Shown here piece after piece: positions 7,076-25,688 of a DNA stretch of 26,229 nucleotides. Within the stretch, counting starts at the first letter, position 1, and each line of letters begins with the position of its first letter. Under the pieces are notes generated by a model. That model worked only from the letters and a program-made list of their open reading frames with translations. It did not search any database and was not told where the DNA came from. A program made the position numbers and the translations under genes. The stretch covers positions 1 to 26,229 of the forward strand of contig JAZRCO010000077.1 of assembly GCA_045659855.1 (NCBI GenBank). The letters run 5' to 3'. Source of the DNA: Eubacteriales bacterium (lineage in GTDB: Bacteria; Bacillota; Clostridia; Oscillospirales; CAG-272).

Positions 7076-8368
7076 TTATTGGATATGATCAAGCAAGGCA
7101 TAAAAGGTTTGTGCCGCTTGCGCTCTCGTCATATTTGCATCGGGTGCAAACTCGCCGTTTATGCCCACAAGTATGCCGAGATCGTTTAGAGCATACACCG
7201 CGTCGTGTGCCCAAGTGGGAATGGAATCCTTGTCGGCAAAGGTCGGCTTGACGGTGGGTAGCTTGCCGTTCACAACGTTATTGATTATGAGCGCCGCCTC
7301 GGCACGAGTTATATTTCTATTCGGATGGAAATAATAATTTCCCTGCTCATCGACCGCACCGCTAATGATACCCATTTGGCGAGCCGTATATACGTATCCC
7401 TTCATCGAGGCGGGAATCTCACCGTCATCGTCAAAGCCCGTATCCAAAACAACGTCGGTCTTGCTTACACCGATGGCGTGCATGAGCATAACGAGAAAAT
7501 CCATTCGGCTAACACTCTTGTCGGGCATAAAATAAGTCGCATCACCTATGGAGGTGCCGCTCATTATTCCCTTTTCGGTCATTGTGAGCGCCGCGTGGTG
7601 GGAGGGATGGTCATCCATATCGCAATATACCACGTCCGTCGTTCTTTTTTCAACGGTGAGGTTCACCTTCTTGGCCGAGGAATAGTTTCCGTATTTATCG
7701 ACCGCCACGTACATAAAGGAATCCTCTCCAAAATACGCCCCCGTTGGAGTGTAGGTATACTCACCCGTAGTCATATCAAGATCTATCGTGCCGTTCTTGG
7801 CATAGGAAACGATTTCGTATCTGACGTCGTCCCCGTCGGGATCGTAAGCGCCAACGCGTCCGTATATTCTCACGCTTTGGTGGGTGCTAACGTTAAAAAT
7901 GCGCTCATCCTCCATAGCAAGCGTGGGAGCCGAATTGGGACGCTCCAAAAAATATATACTACAGGTCATTAAGTATTCGCTGCCGTTCACCTTGAACTTG
8001 AACTGCGCCTCATTGACATCCCCATTGCCTGCACGGTAGTTGAGCAAATCAAGATTCTCCCTGGAGACAGTTTGCCCCTCGTTAACAAGCACGTCGCCAA
8101 TGCACAGGCATCCGTCACTAACGTTTGGCAGTGAGACGATGGTGATGGAACTTATCCTTGCAAGATTCAAGCTTCTTTCAAAATCGTCGGCGGAAAAAAC
8201 GATCTTTTCACTCGACATTACACTTTTCGCCATATCGCTTTGATTGGCTATGACGTTAAGTCCCTGTGAAACGTCTCCCGTAGATTCCCTTGTTTGCTCC
8301 TTAACAACGCCGATCGCCGTAAAGGTTACCGCCAAAACAAGCACTAAAAGCATTATTATTCTTTTCAT
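7076..8368 (-). CDS. secreted S-layer homology domain protein with Ig-like (Big_9/cadherin-like) domain
   Basis: N-terminal hydrophobic signal; YTYTPTGAYFGEDSFMY Ig-like signature; three SLH-like repeats (FMPDKSVSRMDF, FHPNRNITRAEAA, FAPDANMTRAQAA). Confidence 0.85.
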   Translation of the reverse strand: MKRIIMLLVLVLAVTFTAIGVVKEQTRESTGDVSQGLNVIANQSDMAKSVMSSEKIVFSADDFERSLNLARISSITIVSLPNVSDGCLCIGDVLVNEGQTVSRENLDLLNYRAGNGDVNEAQFKFKVNGSEYLMTCSIYFLERPNSAPTLAMEDERIFNVSTHQSVRIYGRVGAYDPDGDDVRYEIVSYAKNGTIDLDMTTGEYTYTPTGAYFGEDSFMYVAVDKYGNYSSAKKVNLTVEKRTTDVVYCDMDDHPSHHAALTMTEKGIMSGTSIGDATYFMPDKSVSRMDFLVMLMHAIGVSKTDVVLDTGFDDDGEIPASMKGYVYTARQMGIISGAVDEQGNYYFHPNRNITRAEAALIINNVVNGKLPTVKPTFADKDSIPTWAHDAVYALNDLGILVGINGEFAPDANMTRAQAAQTFYALLDHIQ

Positions 8369-8443
8369 AATTATCCTCTCTGATTTTTTGTCTTGTTAAA
8401 TTATATCTTTGCGGATCATTTTTTATGCAAGTAAAAAGAATTA

Positions 8444-8472
8444 TTGTAATTTTTGTGCTTTTGGTGTATAAT
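8444..8472 (+). promoter_or_regulatory. sigmaA-type promoter of the RluA-family/DUF3810 pair
   Basis: TTGTAA (8444-8449), 17 bp, TATAAT (8467-8472). Confidence 0.6.
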
Positions 8473-8509
8473 AATGCTATCAAAAAGCAATTTGGGAAAG
8501 GAGGTCATT

Positions 8510-9418
8510 ATGCGATTTGAAAATGAATTCGTCGGTCTTACAATCAAAGAGGTACTGATAGACAAGCTCGGCTTTTCAAAGCGCGCTATTGCCTCCCTCA
8601 AAAACCGTTCCGACGGCATACTTTTAAACGGCGAGCACGCCACCGTGAGAGCTAAGATCAAGGAAAACGACGTTTTGGTCATAAACATAGAGGATGCCGC
8701 AATCGGCAATGAAAAGCTAGTTCCCTCAGCGGTTTTGCCGAGCATCATCTACGAGGATGACGGCATCGTGGTGCTGAACAAGCCCCCGTTCATGCCAACT
8801 CATCAGTCGCAAGGACATTTCTACGATACGCTTGCCAATTCGCTCGCATTCTATTATCAAAGCCAAGGAAAGAGCTTTGTTTTTAGGTCCATAAACCGAC
8901 TCGACCGAAACACAAGTGGGATCGTTCTTGTGGCGAAGGATAGGTTATCCGCCGCAAAGCTATCCTCCCAAATGAAGAGCGACGGAATAAGAAAGACCTA
9001 TCTTGCTATCCTTTGCGGAGAGCTTCCCTTGACGGAGGGAACGGTGGAAACCTATATAAGAAGAAAAGAAAAAAGCATTATTTTAAGAGAGGTTTGCGAG
9101 AACCTTGAGGACGCAAAGCATGCCGTTACGAAATACAGGGTCTTGGCAACAAGCAACGGTCTATCCCTCGTTGAGGCAACTCCCGTAACGGGAAGGACAC
9201 ATCAGCTCAGAGTTCATTTTGCCCATCTCGGAGCGCAAATTCTTGGTGACGACCTTTACGGCAACGGCTCGAATATGATAAAAAGGCATGCCCTACACGC
9301 CTACAAGCTATCCTTTTGCAACCCAAGCTCCAATGAGAAAATGGAGCTTTGCGCCGCAGTTCCCGACGATATGAAGAAGATAATCATAGAAAATTTTGGA
9401 GAGGAGTGGGTTAGATAA
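8510..9418 (+). CDS. RluA-family pseudouridine synthase
   Basis: VLNKPP, catalytic RLDRNTSG, TGRTHQLRVH, ILGDDLYG, HALHA motifs; AAGGAGG RBS before ATG 8510. Confidence 0.93.
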   Translation: MRFENEFVGLTIKEVLIDKLGFSKRAIASLKNRSDGILLNGEHATVRAKIKENDVLVINIEDAAIGNEKLVPSAVLPSIIYEDDGIVVLNKPPFMPTHQSQGHFYDTLANSLAFYYQSQGKSFVFRSINRLDRNTSGIVLVAKDRLSAAKLSSQMKSDGIRKTYLAILCGELPLTEGTVETYIRRKEKSIILREVCENLEDAKHAVTKYRVLATSNGLSLVEATPVTGRTHQLRVHFAHLGAQILGDDLYGNGSNMIKRHALHAYKLSFCNPSSNEKMELCAAVPDDMKKIIIENFGEEWVR

Positions 9419-10539
9419 TGAACGGCACCGATAACAAGCAAGCAAACGGCGCAAAGCTAAGGATTCCGATATTCTCATACGTTTTCTTTGGCATAGCGGT
9501 CATCTCCTCGATACTCTATTTCATTGCGTTAAACAACACCGCATTTGCCGATTCCTTTAACAATAGCGTTTCGGCAGTTCTTAGAGGCGCATTGGCGATG
9601 CTGACGAATATCCTTCCCCTATCGTTTGCCGAGCTTTTAATTATTTTCTCACCCGTAATACTCTTTTTCGCAATTAGATTTGCAATAAAGAAGTATTCAG
9701 ACTCGTGGCACAATGTTGGTATAATGTGCGTAACGGTGCTTTCCATCGGCGCCTTAATATACAGTGTTTTCGCTCTCAATTTCGGCATCGCATATCACAC
9801 GAGCCCCCTTGATAAAAAGCTCGAGCTCGACAAAAAAACGGTCTCCGCAAGCGAGCTTGCCTCCACCGCCGATTGGCTAATATCCGAGGTCAATGCCGTG
9901 ATCGACAGTGTGGAGTTTGAAGAAAAAAGCTCTTCCGTTATGCCATTTAGCATTCGCGAGATGAACGATAAGCTACTCTTGTCGTATAAAAAAATCAACA
10001 CGGAGTATCCCTTTATCACAAAATTAAGATCCCGAGTCAAGCCCATAATCCTCAGCGAGCCCATGACATATACTCACATCTCGGGCGTCTATACCTTCTT
10101 TACGGGAGAGGCGAATCTCAACACCAACGGACCCGATTATTCCCTCGTTTATACCAGCGCACACGAGCTTGCTCACCAAAGGGGCATCGCAAGAGAGGAC
10201 GAGGCAAATTTCGTTGCGTTTTTGGTTTGCTCGTCAAGTGAGGATCCCTATATAAAATATTGCGGATATATGAATCTTTGCGAATACGTTTTGAATGCTC
10301 TTTACAGCGCCGACTCAAAGCTGTGGGAGGAAACATACAAAAAGCTCGATAACCGCGCAATATACGAAATGATAGCTTATAACAAGCATTATGAAAAATA
10401 CCGCGACAACGTGGTGGGTGAGATAAGCGGAGCAATAAACGATGCCTATCTTCAAGCCAACGGAACACAGGGATCGGTGAGCTACGGACTCGTCGTTGAC
10501 CTTGCGGTAGCATATTTTCACGATAGAATTGAAAACTGA
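9418..10539 (+). CDS. membrane-anchored zincin-like protein (DUF3810 family)
   Basis: three N-terminal hydrophobic segments; SGVYTFFTGEANLN, AHELAHQRG and REDEANF motifs; TAATG overlap with the upstream gene. Confidence 0.8.
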   Translation: MNGTDNKQANGAKLRIPIFSYVFFGIAVISSILYFIALNNTAFADSFNNSVSAVLRGALAMLTNILPLSFAELLIIFSPVILFFAIRFAIKKYSDSWHNVGIMCVTVLSIGALIYSVFALNFGIAYHTSPLDKKLELDKKTVSASELASTADWLISEVNAVIDSVEFEEKSSSVMPFSIREMNDKLLLSYKKINTEYPFITKLRSRVKPIILSEPMTYTHISGVYTFFTGEANLNTNGPDYSLVYTSAHELAHQRGIAREDEANFVAFLVCSSSEDPYIKYCGYMNLCEYVLNALYSADSKLWEETYKKLDNRAIYEMIAYNKHYEKYRDNVVGEISGAINDAYLQANGTQGSVSYGLVVDLAVAYFHDRIEN

Positions 10540-10674
10540 ATATTATGGTTATAAATTGATTGAAAAAAATTCTTCAATTGATAAAAAAACTATTCCATTT
10601 TGGGCAGTTGTATGATATACTGTAATTAGAGTAGAAAAATACGACTGCCAATTTTGTTGGAGGGCTTTACATAT

Positions 10675-11952
10675 ATGGATAAAATTATTATTAACGGAGG
10701 AAATAAGCTTTACGGCGACGTTTACATCAACGGTATGAAAAACGCCGCACTCCCCATTATTTTTGCAACAATTCTTACTGCTGATAAATGTGTTATTGAA
10801 AACGTTCCCAACGTAAGCGATATTACTATGTCGTTTGAAATCTTACAAACAATGGGAGCAAAGATAAATTATCTCAATGCGACCTCGGTCGAAATTGATA
10901 CTTCCGAGCTCGAATACGGAACGTCCCCAAAGGATCTCGTTATGAGAATGAGGGGCTCCACCTACCTTCTCGGTGCGGAGCTTGCAAGATTCCACAAATC
11001 CAAGGTGGCACACCCCGGAGGATGTAATTTCGGCTCTCGTCCCATCGACATGCACATCAAGGGCTTTGAGGCACTTGGTGCAAGCGTTTCTCAACACGAC
11101 GAATACGTATTGGCCGACGCTCCGAACGGTCTCGTTGGCAATTCCATTTACTTTGACATCGCTTCAGTAGGCGCAACCGTTAACATTATGCTTGCGGCAA
11201 CTCTTTCACAGGGTCAAACCGTTATTGAAAATGCGGCTCGCGAGCCCCATATAGTTGACCTTGCAAACTTCCTTAATATGTGCGGCGCGGATATCAAGGG
11301 TGCAGGTACGGGCATTATCAAGATCAACGGTGTTGAAAAGCTCAAGGGCTGCAACTACGATATCATTCCCGATATGATAGAGGCAGGCACATATATGACC
11401 GCTGTAGCGGCAACGGGCGGCGAGGTAAATATTAAAAACGTGATCCCCAAGCACCTTGAGATAATTTCTACAAAGCTCATTGAGATGGGAGTTGAGGTTG
11501 AAACACACGACGATTATCTTACCGTGCGTTCAAATGGCTCACTCAAGCCCACCAATATTCAAACGCTTCCCTATCCCGGCTTCCCCACGGATATGCACCC
11601 ACAGTTTGGCACGCTCCTTTGCATTGCCGACGGTGATAGCACCGTATATGAAACCATTTGGAAGAATCGCTTTAAATATGCCTTGGAGCTTGAAAAAATG
11701 GGCGCAAGCGTTATGATCAACGAGCCCTTTGCCGCATTCAAGGGAGTGGAAAAGCTCCACGGTGCAACAGTTAGCTCGGTTGACCTGAGAGGTGGTGCGG
11801 CTCTCGTTATTGCAGGCCTTATTGCCGAGGGTACGACGGAAATCGTCAATATATCCACCATTGAGCGCGGATATTTCGATATAGTCGGCAAGCTCAAGGA
11901 GCTCGGTGCGGACATTTCAAAGGTCTACGTCGACGAAAACGCATTTATTTAA
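10675..11952 (+). CDS. murA: UDP-N-acetylglucosamine 1-carboxyvinyltransferase
   Basis: GMKNAALP, active-site PGGCNFGSRPIDMH, SVGATVN, AREPHIVDL, YPGFPTD, DLRGGAAL, ERGY; GGAGGG RBS before ATG 10675. Confidence 0.96.
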   Translation: MDKIIINGGNKLYGDVYINGMKNAALPIIFATILTADKCVIENVPNVSDITMSFEILQTMGAKINYLNATSVEIDTSELEYGTSPKDLVMRMRGSTYLLGAELARFHKSKVAHPGGCNFGSRPIDMHIKGFEALGASVSQHDEYVLADAPNGLVGNSIYFDIASVGATVNIMLAATLSQGQTVIENAAREPHIVDLANFLNMCGADIKGAGTGIIKINGVEKLKGCNYDIIPDMIEAGTYMTAVAATGGEVNIKNVIPKHLEIISTKLIEMGVEVETHDDYLTVRSNGSLKPTNIQTLPYPGFPTDMHPQFGTLLCIADGDSTVYETIWKNRFKYALELEKMGASVMINEPFAAFKGVEKLHGATVSSVDLRGGAALVIAGLIAEGTTEIVNISTIERGYFDIVGKLKELGADISKVYVDENAFI

Positions 11953-11972: not shown

Positions 11973-12003
11973 AATCCCTCAACCGTTGGTTGAGGGATTT
12001 ATT
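11973..12003 (+). terminator. intrinsic terminator after murA
   Basis: AATCCCTCAACC-GTT-GGTTGAGGGATT 12-bp stem followed by TATTT. Confidence 0.8.
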
Positions 12004-12732: not shown

Positions 12733-14748
<2,016 letters not shown>

Positions 14749-19833: not shown

Positions 19834-20835
19834 TTATGCGAGCTCAATGAGCTTTAAGCAAAGCTCATTATAATTAAGTCCCGCCACCGCCGCCTCCTGC
19901 GGCAAAAGACTTGTGGGTGTCATTCCCGGGAGGGCATTCGCCTCAAGGAAGAAAAATTCATCGGATTCGTCAAGAATAAAATCTATTCTCGAATAAGAGC
20001 CGAGTCTTAAAACTCTATGCGCTCTCTCGGCATAAGCTTGAAGCTTTTTCGTAAGTGCATCATCAAGGGGCGCAGGACATATCTCGTGCGCAAGGCCCGC
20101 CTGATATTTCACCTTATAGTTGTAGAAATCGCCCGTTGCGATTATCTCAATGGGAGGAAGTGCTCTTCCGTCAAGGATGCCAACGGAGAATTCCCTGCCC
20201 ACCACCTGCTTTTCAACAAGCACGTTTTCGGAAAATCTCTCCGCCTCCTCAAGCGCTTCATCAAGCGCTCTCTCACTCGTAACCTTGGTAACACCAACGC
20301 TCGAGCCGTTATCGGCGGGCTTTACAAAGCAAGGAATAAGGCCCTTTAATGCCTCTCTACCGTCCTTGTTTGTCAACCACTCGGCTGTGGGAACACCCTC
20401 TCTTGCGACAAGCTCCTTGGAGATTATCTTATCCATTGAAAGCATGCATCCAACCGATGAGCTACCCGTAAATCTAATTCCGTTCATTTCAAGCAATGCT
20501 TGAAGCTTTCCGTTTTCCCCAACGCCTCCATGAAGAGCAAGGAATGCCACGTCCGCCATCTTACAAAATTCAACAACATTTTCACCCACGGGATTTTCTC
20601 TTCCGCCATTGGATGCGATAAGCGCTGCAAGATCGGGAGCTACCTCGGGAATCTTATATTCGTATCTTCCCTCCACACCGTCAAAATTCATCCTGTCTTT
20701 TTCAATACCGTAATAAAGATCCACAAGGACTGCACGGTGTCCACACTCTCTAAGAGCGTTTGCTATGAGTGAGCCCGATGCGAGAGAAACGTCCCTCTCC
20801 ATGCTAAGTCCACCCGCTAAAACAACTATATTCAT
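19834..20835 (-). CDS. ddl: D-alanine--D-alanine ligase
   Basis: VLAGGLSMERDVSLASG, LHGGVGENG, FVKPADNGSSVG, GREFSVG, FYNYKVKY omega loop, SRIDF, LEANALPGMT. Confidence 0.95.
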   Translation of the reverse strand: MNIVVLAGGLSMERDVSLASGSLIANALRECGHRAVLVDLYYGIEKDRMNFDGVEGRYEYKIPEVAPDLAALIASNGGRENPVGENVVEFCKMADVAFLALHGGVGENGKLQALLEMNGIRFTGSSSVGCMLSMDKIISKELVAREGVPTAEWLTNKDGREALKGLIPCFVKPADNGSSVGVTKVTSERALDEALEEAERFSENVLVEKQVVGREFSVGILDGRALPPIEIIATGDFYNYKVKYQAGLAHEICPAPLDDALTKKLQAYAERAHRVLRLGSYSRIDFILDESDEFFFLEANALPGMTPTSLLPQEAAVAGLNYNELCLKLIELA

Positions 20836-20867: not shown

Positions 20868-22298
20868 CTACTTGACCGCTATCTTTGCAAGTCCCGCTTC
20901 ACTTGTTTCCTTATATGCAGGTGACATATCGTCGCCCGTTTCCTTCATCGCAATGACCACCTTATCAAAGGATATCTTTCTTGTATCGAACAAAAGATTA
21001 GCAAGGTTTGCGGCATTGATGGCACGCATTGCCGCCACGGCATTTCTCTCGATGCAGGGGATTTGCACAAGACCGCATATGGGGTCACAGGTCAAGCCCA
21101 AATGATGCTCAAGAGCTATCTCCGCCGCATATTCGATCTTATCGATGTCCATTCCGTAAAGCTCGGCAAGAGCCGCCGCTCCCATGGAGCAAGCACTTCC
21201 GATCTCGGCTTGACATCCACATTCCGCACCCGAAATGGACGCGTTGTGCTTGATGAGGTTGCCTATTACTCCCGCGGTGGTGAGCGCCTTGATGATATCG
21301 TCGTCGGTGGCATTCTTTTTATGCTTATGATAGAGCATTACCGCAGGAAGAACACCCGCTGCACCGCACGTGGGAGCAGTAACGATTTTTTGTCCTGCCG
21401 CATTTTGCTCTCCAACGGCAAATGCAAGCGCACAAACGAGTCTATCCTCGCGCGTTTCTCTATTCTCGTCCTCCTTATAGGTGTTAAAGAGCTGCTTTGC
21501 TCTCTTGTAAACACCGAGTCCGCCGGGAAGGATGCCTTCGTCATCAAGACCTGCCTGAATAGAATCCTTCATCGCCTGCCATATGCTCGCCATATGCTCG
21601 TAAAAGCCCTCGCCCTCTATTTCAAAGGCGTATTCCCAAATTCTAATGCCCTTATTTCTACAGTAATCGGCGATATCCTTAAAGGTATCCAAAGGATAAA
21701 TCATTTGACTTTTGGCAAGCTTTTCGCCTTCAGCCACAATGCTTCCCCCACCAACGCTATAAAAACGTTGCTTTGCAATCTCTTTCCCACCACTTATAGC
21801 AACAAGGTCCATTGTGTTGGGATGCACGGGGCATTCGGTGTCAAAGTCAAATTCCACCTCGCACTCGCAGGGCAAAAAGGTTTGCACGATAACGTAATCA
21901 GTTCCGTGTCCCTTACCCGTTTTGGAAAGCGAGCCGTAAAGCGTAGCACGATATTTTTCAGCGGGATGCTCCTCCTTGAATCTAAGACATGCACGCTCGG
22001 GGCCTATTGTGTGTGAGCTCGAGGGGCCTCTACCTATCTTGTAAAGCTCGCGAAGAGAGGACATTCCACCCTCCTTGGTGAGCTTTTTGCTCTGCGACTC
22101 CTCGGATTGATAAAAATAGGTTATGGAAACGCCAAACATTTTGGCTATTTGTAAAAGATTTTTAGTTGAGGGATTGGAGAGATTATTCTCCCATTTAGAC
22201 ACCGCCTGCTCGCTGATACCGAGTCGGTCCGCAAGCTCTCGCTGTGTAACACCCTTGCTTTTTCTAAGCTTTTTGATTCTTTCGCCTTGAGTTCTCAT
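20868..22298 (-). CDS. sdaA: XRE-family HTH domain fused to single-chain Fe-S L-serine ammonia-lyase
   Basis: aa 1-65 HTH_3 (TQRELADRLGISEQAVSKWEN); from aa 79 LYKIGRGPSSSHTIGP, APTCGAAG, GAECGCQAEIG, GLTCDPICGLVQIPCIERN. Confidence 0.9.
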   Translation of the reverse strand: MRTQGERIKKLRKSKGVTQRELADRLGISEQAVSKWENNLSNPSTKNLLQIAKMFGVSITYFYQSEESQSKKLTKEGGMSSLRELYKIGRGPSSSHTIGPERACLRFKEEHPAEKYRATLYGSLSKTGKGHGTDYVIVQTFLPCECEVEFDFDTECPVHPNTMDLVAISGGKEIAKQRFYSVGGGSIVAEGEKLAKSQMIYPLDTFKDIADYCRNKGIRIWEYAFEIEGEGFYEHMASIWQAMKDSIQAGLDDEGILPGGLGVYKRAKQLFNTYKEDENRETREDRLVCALAFAVGEQNAAGQKIVTAPTCGAAGVLPAVMLYHKHKKNATDDDIIKALTTAGVIGNLIKHNASISGAECGCQAEIGSACSMGAAALAELYGMDIDKIEYAAEIALEHHLGLTCDPICGLVQIPCIERNAVAAMRAINAANLANLLFDTRKISFDKVVIAMKETGDDMSPAYKETSEAGLAKIAVK

Positions 22299-22329
22299 AT
22301 TACCTCCGAATCAACCTTTAGTTGAGTAA

Positions 22330-22358
22330 ATTATAGCAAAATTATACCCCGTTGTCAA
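22330..22358 (-). promoter_or_regulatory. consensus sigmaA promoter of the HTH-sdaA gene
   Basis: minus strand TTGACA (22358-22353), 17 bp, TGC-TATAAT (22335-22330). Confidence 0.8.
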
Positions 22359-22378
22359 TCGTTTTATTAATTAATTTA

Positions 22379-22407
22379 TTGACTTTTTTTCGAAAAAGAT
22401 GTACAAT
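22379..22407 (+). promoter_or_regulatory. sigmaA-type promoter of the TrmH-family gene
   Basis: TTGACT (22379-22384), 17 bp, TACAAT (22402-22407). Confidence 0.6.
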
Positions 22408-22435
22408 AACTTTAATGAAAAGTAAAGGATATTTT

Positions 22436-23269
22436 ATGGCAAACATTATCAATATAACTGATTTTAACGATAGCGCGCTCGACGTTTACGTGCGACTCAC
22501 AGGTTCACAGCTAAGAAACAAGCTCGAGCCCGAAAAGGGTATTTTTATTGCGGAAAGCCCCACCGTTATTGAGGTGGCAATGAATTCGGGATGTACTCCC
22601 ATCTCATTTTTGACCGATGAAAGACTTATAAAAAGCGGCTCGGTTGAAAGCATTATATCCGCCTTGCCCGAGGGCACTCCCATATATACTGCAAGCCGAG
22701 AGCTACTCACCTCGCTCACCGGCTTTGAGCTCACGCGAGGCGCTCTTTGTGCAATGAAGCGCCCTGCTCTTTTGTCAGTCGAGGAGCTTTGCAAAAACGC
22801 GCGCCGAATCGCCGTTTTCGAGGAGATAACCGATTCGACCAATATTGGCGCACTCTTTCGTTCAGCCGCCGCACTCGGTATCGATGCAGTGCTTGTAACG
22901 CCCACCTGCTGTGATCCCCTATGTAGACGCGCGGTGAGAGTGAGTATGGGCACGGTTTTTCAAGTGCCGTGGACTCGTATTGGAGAAAGCAAGGCCGATT
23001 GGCCTGCCAAGATGCAGGATCTCAAGGATCTCGGCTACAAAACGCTCGCAATGGCTCTTAGAAACGACACAGTTGACATCGACGACGAGCAGCTCCACAA
23101 GGAAGAAAAGCTCGCAATCATCCTAGGCACCGAGGGCACTGGCTTAACTCCCAAAACCATTGACGATTGCGATTATACCGTAAAGATCCCAATGATGCAC
23201 GGGGTTGACTCATTGAACGTGGGTGCGGCAGGTGCCATCGCCTTTTGGGAGCTTGGGAAAGCAAGATGA
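22436..23269 (+). CDS. TrmH/SpoU-family RNA methyltransferase
   Basis: FIAESP, TNIGALFRSAAALG, RRAVRVSMG, LGTEGTGL, IPMMHGVDSLNVGAA SPOUT motifs; AAAGGA RBS before ATG 22436. Confidence 0.93.
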   Translation: MANIINITDFNDSALDVYVRLTGSQLRNKLEPEKGIFIAESPTVIEVAMNSGCTPISFLTDERLIKSGSVESIISALPEGTPIYTASRELLTSLTGFELTRGALCAMKRPALLSVEELCKNARRIAVFEEITDSTNIGALFRSAAALGIDAVLVTPTCCDPLCRRAVRVSMGTVFQVPWTRIGESKADWPAKMQDLKDLGYKTLAMALRNDTVDIDDEQLHKEEKLAIILGTEGTGLTPKTIDDCDYTVKIPMMHGVDSLNVGAAGAIAFWELGKAR

Positions 23270-23321: not shown

Positions 23322-25688
23322 TTATTTTTTTGTAAAGGTGATAGTTGCACTTCCCTCGTCGATCGAGTCAACCGTGAAGCTAAATGCAAGCTTATCGCCG
23401 TTATCATCGTAAACGTCACCGAATGTACTACCCTCAATAAAGGTAAAGGTATCCTCCGCGGACTTTACAAATTCGATAAGATTTTCCTTGGTTCCGTAAC
23501 CGTTGGGGTCGGATGCATCGGTATTATTATAATAAATATCGTAATAAATTCCGTCACCGTAATCCTGTGCAACAAGAGAAGCGTTCACGTGGTACACAAT
23601 GATTCCGTCGCGCGCGAAGTATCCGCTACTATCCCCACCGTTTAGTCCGTTGTTGGTGTAGTAAACAAGAATGTAATATTCTTGATATGCACCGAGCTTT
23701 TCGTCCCAGTTATTTGCGAGGATTATCGTATCACCGTTTTTCGAGAAGTCCTCGAGAGTGAGTGTAACGCTCGTTTGCGTTGTAACAAGTCTTGAGCTCC
23801 TAAGCCAACCGAGATTGAACTTGGTGAACGCATTGTGGTCGCCCACCATGGAGTCCATCACGTCGCATCCGTCAAGGGGTGAGCCAACGTATGCTGTATC
23901 GTAATAATCGTCAACACCGAGAACGTGAGCAAACTCGTGAATGTAAGTGTAGGTATTCATAACGGTGCTATCCGAATATACGGGATAACCCTCGGAATCA
24001 TAGCTCTCGTTGAGGAACTGATAGGATGCCCAAATGTAATCGTTTGCGCTTACACCGTCATATTCGTAATAGTAGCCGTCATCATCGGTGTAAATATTCC
24101 AATAGCGGTACGCCCAGTAAAAGTTCTCATCAGCGATATCGAGAGTGTTGATGAGTACCACGGAGTCGATGATTCCGTTGTTATCGGAGTCAAACTTGGA
24201 GAGGTCCATAACACCTGCAAGGTATGCAAGCGCCTCGTCCATAACAAGCTGGTCGCCTATCTCCACATCACTTCCGTAGTAATCGTAGGTCGCATTGTAA
24301 TAATAGCTACTGTCATACTTGGGAGTAAACCAGTAATCAAGAACGGTAATGTCGAGTGTGAGCTGACCGTAGCTTGAGATGTAGTAATAATCGTAAACGG
24401 AGTAGTAATCCGTTTTTCCTCCCTGCTTGAATGCTTCAAGGAGCGCATTCGTTGTGTATCCCTTGTCCGCCGCCTTGGAGTCGCTAAACTGAACGGGGAT
24501 AACAAGTACTGCGGGAGAGCCCGTTGTTGGACATCCTTCAAGATAGTATGCCTGATCGGTAACGTCCTTTACCTTTTCGGCAGCTGTGAAATCAACGTCA
24601 AAGACACCGTTATTTCCCTCGGGAAGACCTGCTCCCGCATTGGTAATAATGTTTCCGTCGGTGGAGCCGCCCAAATCACCGGAATCGCCCGAATCGCCCG
24701 AATCACCCGAGCCGCCGGAGCTACCCGTTTCAGTGATATAGTATGCATAAACGTCAACGACGTATCCTTCGTCGGTTTCGTAATATGCGATATCTACACA
24801 GTAAGAGCCGTCCTTGGCATCGTAATAGTACCAAGCGTCACCGTATTCGTCGGTTTCAGTTCCCACGTAGGTGTAGCCCGAGAACAATGCCCTATATGCC
24901 TCGAATTCCGCCTGTGTATTGCCGTAGGTGTAGAAATTTAAGCCAATTTCAGTTGTACCGTCGGAATAGTCAAAGCTATATTCCTCAACATAATATTCAC
25001 TGTTGGGAATGAACGGTATCGTTGCGCCCACAACTCTATTGAAGAGCGCCTTCTCATCGGAGGTGAAGGACATGTAGGTATGGTTGGTGTCGGTGTTGCC
25101 GCTATCGCCCTCGCTGATGCGGTAAGCGTACACGTCAACAACATAATAGCCCTCGTAATAATAGAAGGTTATATCTACGTAATATGAGCCATCCTTGGCA
25201 TCGTAGAAGAACCAAGCGTCGCCATATTCGTCATTTTCGGTGCCTGCGTAATCATAGCCCGAGAACTTGGATTTGTATGCCTCAAACTCGGCGCCCGTAT
25301 TTCCCAAGGTATAGAAATTAATTCCCGTCTTGGTGCTTCCGTCATCGTCATCCTGAGAGAAGGTTTCGAAATAATACTCATCGTTTGGGATGAAAGGAAT
25401 CACCTCGCCGAAAAGTTCATTCATTATTTGCTTTTCGCTCGCCGTAAAGGATGTATAGGTTCTCTTGTCCTCTACGGGATCGTCCGACGAATCCGCCTTC
25501 TTTGTCGTTGTAGTGGTGGTCGGCGGAACAGTGGTAGTGGTCGGTCTTGTGGTAGTGGGCTTGGTAGTAGAAGACGTGGTCGTTTCATCATCGGGAAGCG
25601 TGCCCGTTCCTCCAATATTGAAAAACTCACAAGACGCAAGTGATAAAATAATTATTAATGATAAAAGAAGAACTAATAATCTTTTCAT
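23322..25688 (-). CDS. lipoprotein with M6-family (immune inhibitor A-like) metalloprotease domain and duplicated N-terminal domain
   Basis: lipobox LSLASC, Thr-rich linker, two ~114-aa repeats, VLVIPVQFSD, HEFAHVLGVDD (HExxHxxGxxD), DVMD Met-turn, HNAFTKFNLGW. Confidence 0.85.
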   Translation of the reverse strand: MKRLLVLLLSLIIILSLASCEFFNIGGTGTLPDDETTTSSTTKPTTTRPTTTTVPPTTTTTTKKADSSDDPVEDKRTYTSFTASEKQIMNELFGEVIPFIPNDEYYFETFSQDDDDGSTKTGINFYTLGNTGAEFEAYKSKFSGYDYAGTENDEYGDAWFFYDAKDGSYYVDITFYYYEGYYVVDVYAYRISEGDSGNTDTNHTYMSFTSDEKALFNRVVGATIPFIPNSEYYVEEYSFDYSDGTTEIGLNFYTYGNTQAEFEAYRALFSGYTYVGTETDEYGDAWYYYDAKDGSYCVDIAYYETDEGYVVDVYAYYITETGSSGGSGDSGDSGDSGDLGGSTDGNIITNAGAGLPEGNNGVFDVDFTAAEKVKDVTDQAYYLEGCPTTGSPAVLVIPVQFSDSKAADKGYTTNALLEAFKQGGKTDYYSVYDYYYISSYGQLTLDITVLDYWFTPKYDSSYYYNATYDYYGSDVEIGDQLVMDEALAYLAGVMDLSKFDSDNNGIIDSVVLINTLDIADENFYWAYRYWNIYTDDDGYYYEYDGVSANDYIWASYQFLNESYDSEGYPVYSDSTVMNTYTYIHEFAHVLGVDDYYDTAYVGSPLDGCDVMDSMVGDHNAFTKFNLGWLRSSRLVTTQTSVTLTLEDFSKNGDTIILANNWDEKLGAYQEYYILVYYTNNGLNGGDSSGYFARDGIIVYHVNASLVAQDYGDGIYYDIYYNNTDASDPNGYGTKENLIEFVKSAEDTFTFIEGSTFGDVYDDNGDKLAFSFTVDSIDEGSATITFTKK
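24741..25463 (-). repeat. tandem intragenic domain duplication (25122-25463 and 24741-25082, 342 nt each)
   Basis: shared blocks IPFIPN-EYY, G-NFYT-GNT-AEFEAY, FSGY-Y-GTE-DEYGDAW, YDAKDGSY-VDI, VVDVYAY. Confidence 0.9.

Follow-up and report, generated by a model that had tools for sequence, protein, structure and literature searches.

The locus analyzed here raises the question whether an L-serine dehydratase fused to a DNA-binding domain can control its own synthesis and whether such a gene yields one protein or two. The gene occupies positions 20868..22298 (minus strand) of the window, i.e., the entire 26,229-nucleotide stretch of DNA under study, which comes from a cattle-gut Clostridia bacterium with a genome that is 78% complete (1.04 Mb). 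As delineated from the open reading frame (ORF) list, Pfam, NCBIfam and protein clusters, this HTH_3::L-serine dehydratase gene (hereinafter HTH-sda) comprises 476 codons and a stop in a single uninterrupted frame. Pfam identifies, in the 476-aa protein, HTH_3 in residues 8-62 (70.6 bits, with a cut-off of 23), SDH_beta from residue 81, and SDH_alpha in residues 229-471 (259 bits), and the NCBIfam equivalog TIGR00720 (sda_mono) scores 411 bits, passing the cut-off of 345.1. An earlier note on this DNA had described an HTH_3 domain, a linker and a full Fe-S dehydratase in one frame, a description that is borne out by these matches and the length of the ORF. The XRE/HTH_3 domain (22113..22277, minus strand; recognition helix ..EQAVSKWEN..; detected by Pfam, the structural model and Foldseek) is joined by 16 residues (residues 63-78; 22065..22112, minus strand) to the single-chain [4Fe-4S] L-serine dehydratase part (residues 79-476; 20871..22064, minus strand), in which a short beta domain precedes the alpha domain. 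Across the fusions, the linker is hypervariable in sequence but nearly constant in length, and it is modeled with low confidence (pLDDT 58). Both Shine-Dalgarno (SD) sequences proposed in the note are strong, as judged by the energy of the duplex with the 3' end of 16S rRNA: GGAGG (22303..22307, minus strand) before ATG 22298 scores -10.4 kcal/mol, and AAGGAGG (22070..22076, minus strand; codons K-E-G), which is located 5 nt before the in-frame ATG of M79 (22062..22064, minus strand), scores -11.7 kcal/mol. The latter ATG is indeed the start position of stand-alone enzymes, given that 73 stand-alone homologs begin exactly at the M79 equivalent.

The fusion is genuine. All 120 best matches in a collection of 5.8 billion proteins (61-91% identity, ~476 aa) combine HTH_3, SDH_beta and SDH_alpha; the window protein is cluster P0002, and 119 further clusters with the same fusion are found among these best matches. 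They come mostly from metagenome-assembled genomes of Clostridia/Eubacteriales, and the only source name that they carry is 'L-serine ammonia-lyase'; full-text searching of the literature turned up no publication that describes an HTH-serine dehydratase fusion. There is no stop codon between the head and M79 in any relative compared. The linker is covered by contigs from four independent metagenome runs on gut samples, most of them bovine; these contigs differ by substitutions only, with no indel or stop in the ORF, and one 5.4-kb metagenome contig covers this whole stretch with 27 substitutions and zero gaps. Together, the fused best matches, the absence of a stop in relatives and the absence of indels in contigs rule out a recent stop loss or an assembly or sequencing error, a possibility that the note had named.

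The fusion is nevertheless only one form of this enzyme. An exhaustive search of 50%-identity representatives yielded mostly stand-alone enzymes and is therefore unusable for counting fusions; the other N- or C-terminally extended matches in this search contained no Pfam domain, except for one HD fusion. In a scan of loci from one genome per species, the best 80 loci consisted of 12 fusions, approximately 8 headless genes with a short linker remnant, and genes that start exactly at the M79 equivalent. Within the same family, a set of 150 genomes covering 97 genera contained fusions in approximately 9 cases, and approximately 65 had a stand-alone enzyme of the short type. In a quick IQ-TREE phylogeny built only from the enzyme part (110 rows), 21 of the 24 fusions belong to one clade (SH-aLRT 95) that also includes 7 remnant and 3 stand-alone forms. 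Within this tree, the HTH-less L017 groups with the fusions L004 and L010 (support 100), the HTH-less L020 with the fusions L007, L086 and L088 (support 98), and the HTH-less L009 and L093 with the fusion L087 (support 97). Given that HTH-less genes are nested among fusions, the sequence data indicate that the fusion is old and maintained, and that the head was lost several times. In the HTH-less L017, L020, L009, L011, L013, L025, L090 and L092, which are nested among fusions, part of the linker persists together with the G-M motif, and translation begins at a new ATG 3-16 codons upstream; with this feature ~30-50 nt ahead of the M79-equivalent start codon, these genes look like fossils of head loss.

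The dehydratase half belongs to the class of the Legionella pneumophila enzyme (PDB 4RQO) and E. coli SdaA, SdaB and TdcG (TIGR00720), in which, likewise, a single chain carries first the beta and then the alpha domain. The protein aligns to the Legionella type-2 enzyme by sequence (E = 3e-80) and by Foldseek comparison (TM 0.70/0.75, 38% identity). The window protein shares with 4RQO the GPSSSHT and GKGHGTD motifs as well as three cysteines (Cys362, Cys404 and Cys415 align with the three Cys that are the [4Fe-4S] cluster ligands of 4RQO), all of which are invariant among 25 fusions. It differs from 4RQO in the addition of the N-terminal XRE head and linker, in a beta domain that is ~35 residues shorter, and in the C-terminus (..GLAKIAVK), which lacks a cysteine; in the Legionella enzyme, the C-terminal Cys is said, in 2014 work of Thoden et al., to be an intrinsic competitive inhibitor.

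The head is modeled with good confidence (pLDDT 83-92 for residues 8-62), and Foldseek matches this model to the heads of SinR, P22 c2 and ImmR (TM 0.81-0.87). Upstream of the gene, there is a sigma-70-type promoter (TTGACA-17-TATAAT; 22330..22358, minus strand) that matches the consensus boxes in 12 of 12 positions and has a TG extension. Starting 5 nt past the -10 box lies the palindrome TCAACTAAAGGTTGA (TCAAC-N5-GTTGA; 22311..22325), a candidate operator with half-site centers 10 bp apart. It overlaps the position at which transcription is predicted to begin, and 3 nt separate its end from the SD sequence. In all six genus-level relatives, both promoter boxes (-35 and -10) and the TCAAC-N5-GTTGA element keep the same position, and the arms of the palindrome are invariant, whereas the spacer varies. 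The exact palindrome also precedes the genes of four distant fusion lineages (L119, L087, L016 and L001), and its position varies by lineage: it follows the -10 box, lies on the -35 box (L016) or is found 40-60 nt upstream of the promoter.

This palindrome is associated with the fusion genes. Within 250 nt upstream, the exact palindrome is present in 10 of the 24 fusions and in none of the 87 stand-alone genes; a search that tolerates one arm mismatch raises these numbers to 14 of 24 and 1 of 87. The chance expectation for the exact sequence is ~3e-4 per upstream region, and, with related genomes not being independent samples, the ten exact sites represent about five independent lineages. The palindrome further tracks the recognition helix: the 16 loci with the SKWE helix account for 10 exact and 3 one-mismatch sites, as opposed to no exact and 1 one-mismatch site at the 7 loci with other helices. 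At 10 of the 24 fusion loci, there is no recognizable palindrome within 250-300 nt, and the helix differs in most of these; this absence, along with the variable position of the site, implies that repression need not be universal. Jointly, the palindrome, its association with the helix and the model of the head support the placement of a dimeric repressor head on the gene's own promoter.

The palindrome does not appear to define a larger set of targets. The genome contains five exact copies; apart from that of HTH-sda, the only one located at a promoter, two form terminator hairpins and two lie inside genes, so that no wider regulon was evident in the search of this genome; the 56 one-mismatch copies are mostly noise, with the exception of a site 113 nt upstream of an XRE paralog (see below). 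The two hairpins have the form TCAACC-N3-GGTTGA: one, at 11979-11993 of the window, is a terminator-like stem with a T run that follows a 432-aa ORF (10654-11952), and the other, at C74:2749-2763 of the same genome, is a similar hairpin with a T run after a ClpC-like ORF. That terminator stems share the sequence of the candidate operator is probably a coincidence.

The explanation that we favor, and consider probable although well short of certain, is that HTH-sda encodes an autoregulating, bifunctional enzyme-repressor. The gene would give rise to one bifunctional protein, an active single-chain Fe-S dehydratase with an N-terminal XRE-type head; a pair of heads, held together as a dimer by the enzyme body, would bind the 15-bp palindrome TCAAC-N5-GTTGA at the start site of the very strong promoter that drives the gene and thereby subject the dehydratase to negative autoregulation. 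From the features described above, we infer DNA binding, repression rather than activation, and dimerization via the enzyme. The note had suggested a DNA-binding enzyme that links the level of serine or the state of the [4Fe-4S] cluster to transcription. The first part of this suggestion gains support, at the level of sequence comparison, from the conserved fusion, the repressor-like head and a palindrome on the gene's own promoter that tracks the recognition helix; as for the second part, the flexible 16-residue linker offers no obvious route of allosteric coupling.

Two alternatives each deny one half of this scheme. The dehydratase body could be a pseudoenzyme that senses a ligand and dimerizes without any catalysis, such that the protein is solely a regulator. 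Some regulators do descend from enzymes, and the shortened beta domain and the missing C-terminal Cys would fit this reading, but the short beta domain is common to all 87 stand-alone relatives. Furthermore, the protein passes the equivalog cut-off, the two motifs and three cysteines are invariant, the branches of the fusions in the enzyme-part tree are not inflated, and a second SDH_alpha gene was not found in this 78%-complete genome, all of which renders this possibility very unlikely; the dehydratase part is predicted to be active. Conversely, the HTH domain might not bind DNA at all, being either vestigial or a protein-protein interaction module as in RodZ, with the palindrome being an RNA hairpin or a chance occurrence. 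The repeated loss of the head with retention of the enzyme would fit this possibility, as would the two exact palindromes in the same genome that are terminator hairpins. However, conservation of the head extends to more than 120 clusters, in which Q19, S34, K35, W36 and E37 are invariant; the constant arms and variable spacer of the palindrome show no compensatory changes; and the site occurs at differing promoter positions across lineages while co-varying with the recognition helix. The RNA-hairpin reading also fares no better than shuffled sequence (folding energy of -4.1 kcal/mol, z = 0.04). A head that does not bind DNA therefore appears very improbable, and the autoregulating enzyme-repressor remains the preferred reading.

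The possibility that carries more weight concerns the number of proteins made from the gene. Two proteins are produced from one gene through in-frame internal initiation in the cases of CheA-L/S, IF2 alpha/beta and ClpB, and HTH-sda resembles these in having a strong SD sequence and an in-frame internal ATG at a domain boundary. The note accordingly proposed that an internal ribosome-binding site (RBS) is retained in this gene and that two isoforms form a trigger enzyme: translation starting at ATG 22298 and ATG 22064 would yield a DNA-binding enzyme of 476 aa and a free one of 398 aa. Repression could then be tuned by mixed dimers that have only one head. The internal SD sequence matches the main one in strength, and among the internal in-frame ATGs in the long ORFs of this genome, an equally strong SD-like score is attained by only 18 of 4418 (0.41%), so it is unusual for a random internal methionine. 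AAGGAGG is intact in three of the four strain-level metagenome contigs; in the remaining strain, a G>A substitution at 22070 (GGT to AGT, Gly77Ser) weakens it to AAGGAGA. Some genus-level relatives also have SD-like scores at M79, namely, L115 (80% identity to the window protein; -10.0 kcal/mol), L117 (79%; -7.5 kcal/mol) and L085 (86%; -6.1 kcal/mol), and a score of -6 kcal/mol or lower is found at 4 of the 6 genus-level loci, which is commoner than expected by chance given a background of 15%. The richness of the linker in Lys, Glu, Arg and Gly codons may account for these scores.

Against two isoforms, the score falls to -3.5 kcal/mol in the nearest species (L084, 91% identity) and to -0.3 kcal/mol in L113 (82% identity), and nearly all distant fusions likewise lack an SD sequence at this position. 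The median over 24 fusions is -2.9 kcal/mol, as opposed to -7.9 kcal/mol in 73 stand-alone genes, and equals the internal-ATG background in this genome (-2.9 kcal/mol). Thus, of the two features that the note suggested following through homologs, the fusion is conserved, but the internal SD sequence is lineage-specific: judging from these comparisons, the internal RBS is not a conserved property of the family, in contrast to CheA-L/S, IF2 and ClpB, the known cases in which, to our knowledge, the internal RBS is conserved among orthologs. One fusion, L074, has CTG in place of the M79 codon, the sole such case seen. In the remnant genes, translation begins 3-16 codons ahead of M79, at a start codon with its own SD sequence, and there is no SD sequence at M79, which suggests that their fused ancestors had no RBS there, although this argument is partly circular because the remnant class is partly defined by a weak SD sequence; the placement of these genes in the tree is independent of the SD sequence. 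The internal SD sequence is, most likely, a by-product of the purine-rich linker codons (K-E-G-G) in this lineage. On balance, production of both isoforms seems rather unlikely, and we would give about the same modest credence to internal initiation confined to this particular strain.

Conservation of the methionine itself also counts in favor of an internal start. Position 79 is Met in all 120 fusion proteins among the best matches and position 78 is Gly in 118 of them, whereas the preceding residues are hypervariable; considering also that the junction of a related HTH::GlmM fusion (see below) has lost its Met, something selects for M79. In 72 of the 73 stand-alone enzymes, the residue after the start Met is K, Q, E, R or H. 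As a general rule of methionine aminopeptidase specificity, a bulky second residue causes the initiator Met to be kept, so that Met should stay on the mature stand-alone enzyme. In the clade of the window protein, however, residue 80 is Ser or Ala, and by the same rule, a short isoform would probably lose the very Met79 that is invariant. M79 is probably conserved because its side chain belongs to the enzyme fold, a role that explains the invariance without internal initiation.

The genomic context adds one probable target of the proposed repression. The gene ddl (D-Ala-D-Ala ligase; 19834..20835, minus strand) lies 32 nt downstream of HTH-sda, with no terminator in the 32-nt gap, and is probably co-transcribed with it; in this genus, ddl would then be repressed along with the dehydratase. 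Of the RNA sequencing runs, none proved to contain the locus. The sda-ddl order is the same in genus-level relatives, but ddl follows only in the genus clade: outside the genus, the downstream genes differ, which excludes conserved synteny across the fusion lineages. On the other side, a SpoU-family RNA methylase gene (22436..23269, plus strand) is divergently oriented, with a promoter-like site at 22379-22407. The ORF list gives this methylase as a 305-aa ORF (22352-23269, plus strand) beginning with TTG 22352, but the likely start is ATG 22436. Three relatives (79-82% identity) have a SASA-family (PF03629) gene between SpoU and HTH-sda (L113:1946-2926, L115:1930-2907 and L117:1048-2031); the corresponding interval of the window (22299-22435) lacks it. 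With or without this gene, HTH-sda is immediately preceded by the promoter and palindrome.

Fe-S serine dehydratases are normally under the control of separate regulators. A DNA-binding domain and an enzyme are combined in one polypeptide also in group II BirA, PutA, NadR and archaeal RbkR. Biotin ligases of group I and group II are homologs without and with a head, respectively (PMC4016012), as is the case here, and RbkR is a comparable bifunctional kinase and regulator (PMC5397151). In such enzyme-repressor fusions, the binding site precedes the gene itself or genes of the pathway, and here, the candidate site precedes the gene itself; HTH-sda differs from these proteins in both components, an XRE/Cro-C1 head and an oxygen-labile Fe-S dehydratase, and in that only its own operon is seen as a target. 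With P22 c2, the 434 repressor, SinR and ImmR, it shares the five-helix head and, with dimeric XRE repressors in general, a short palindromic (in this case, candidate) operator that overlaps the promoter and has half-sites one helical turn apart, but the C-terminal, dimerizing module is a 398-aa metabolic enzyme. What is probably new in this system, as far as the sequence comparisons go, is the TCAAC-N5-GTTGA palindrome over the transcription start of HTH-sda, which we interpret as a site of autorepression.

A sister fusion is encoded in the same genome: HTH_3::GlmM (PGM_PMM I-IV domains; 540 aa; contig C58, ~7910-9529, minus strand; L125:311-1930:-). Like HTH-sda, it has an N-terminal head and a CAAC-N5-GTTG core upstream of its own gene, the difference being in the outer bases of the palindrome (GCAAC..GTTGC) and in the junction, where Met is not kept. 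The site, GCAACC-N3-AGTTGC, is located 110-130 nt upstream of HTH::GlmM in two congeners (L127:14-28 and L128:3212-3226), and contig C58 of the genome analyzed here ends before the position of the palindrome. In addition, contig C109 of this genome encodes an XRE paralog (13541-13881; L126) with a nearly identical helix (..SSQAVSKWEND..); the one-mismatch site mentioned above is a hybrid site, GCAACTATTGGTTGA, at C109 13414-13428, and further GTTGA/TCAAC half-sites are located near this gene. The paralog runs off the contig end and, with this query, was not found in two congeners. One could envisage that both isoforms are made in this genus, with mixed dimers setting the level of autorepression, and that HTH::Sda, HTH::GlmM and the XRE paralog, whose recognition helices are nearly identical, form a cross-talk circuit via CAAC-N5-GTTG operators, tying serine breakdown to cell-wall precursors through sda-ddl and glmM; so elaborate a scheme is, in our estimate, distinctly unlikely.

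Under the preferred reading, HTH-sda is a simple case of a catabolic enzyme that apparently gauges and limits its own level, and its Fe-S cluster would make an oxygen- or iron-responsive switch possible. The presence of fused, head-lost and never-fused homologs in one family allows paired comparison of the origin and the decay of a fusion. In E. coli, excess serine is toxic to peptidoglycan synthesis; a connection with this toxicity is suggested by ddl, the probably co-transcribed neighbor, and by the sister fusion HTH::GlmM. Elsewhere in the window, a 788-aa ORF (23322-25688, minus strand) combines a Thr/Pro-rich stalk and two ~130-aa repeat modules with a lipoprotein-like signal and an HEFAH zinc-protease motif, and its product is probably a secreted or surface metalloprotease.
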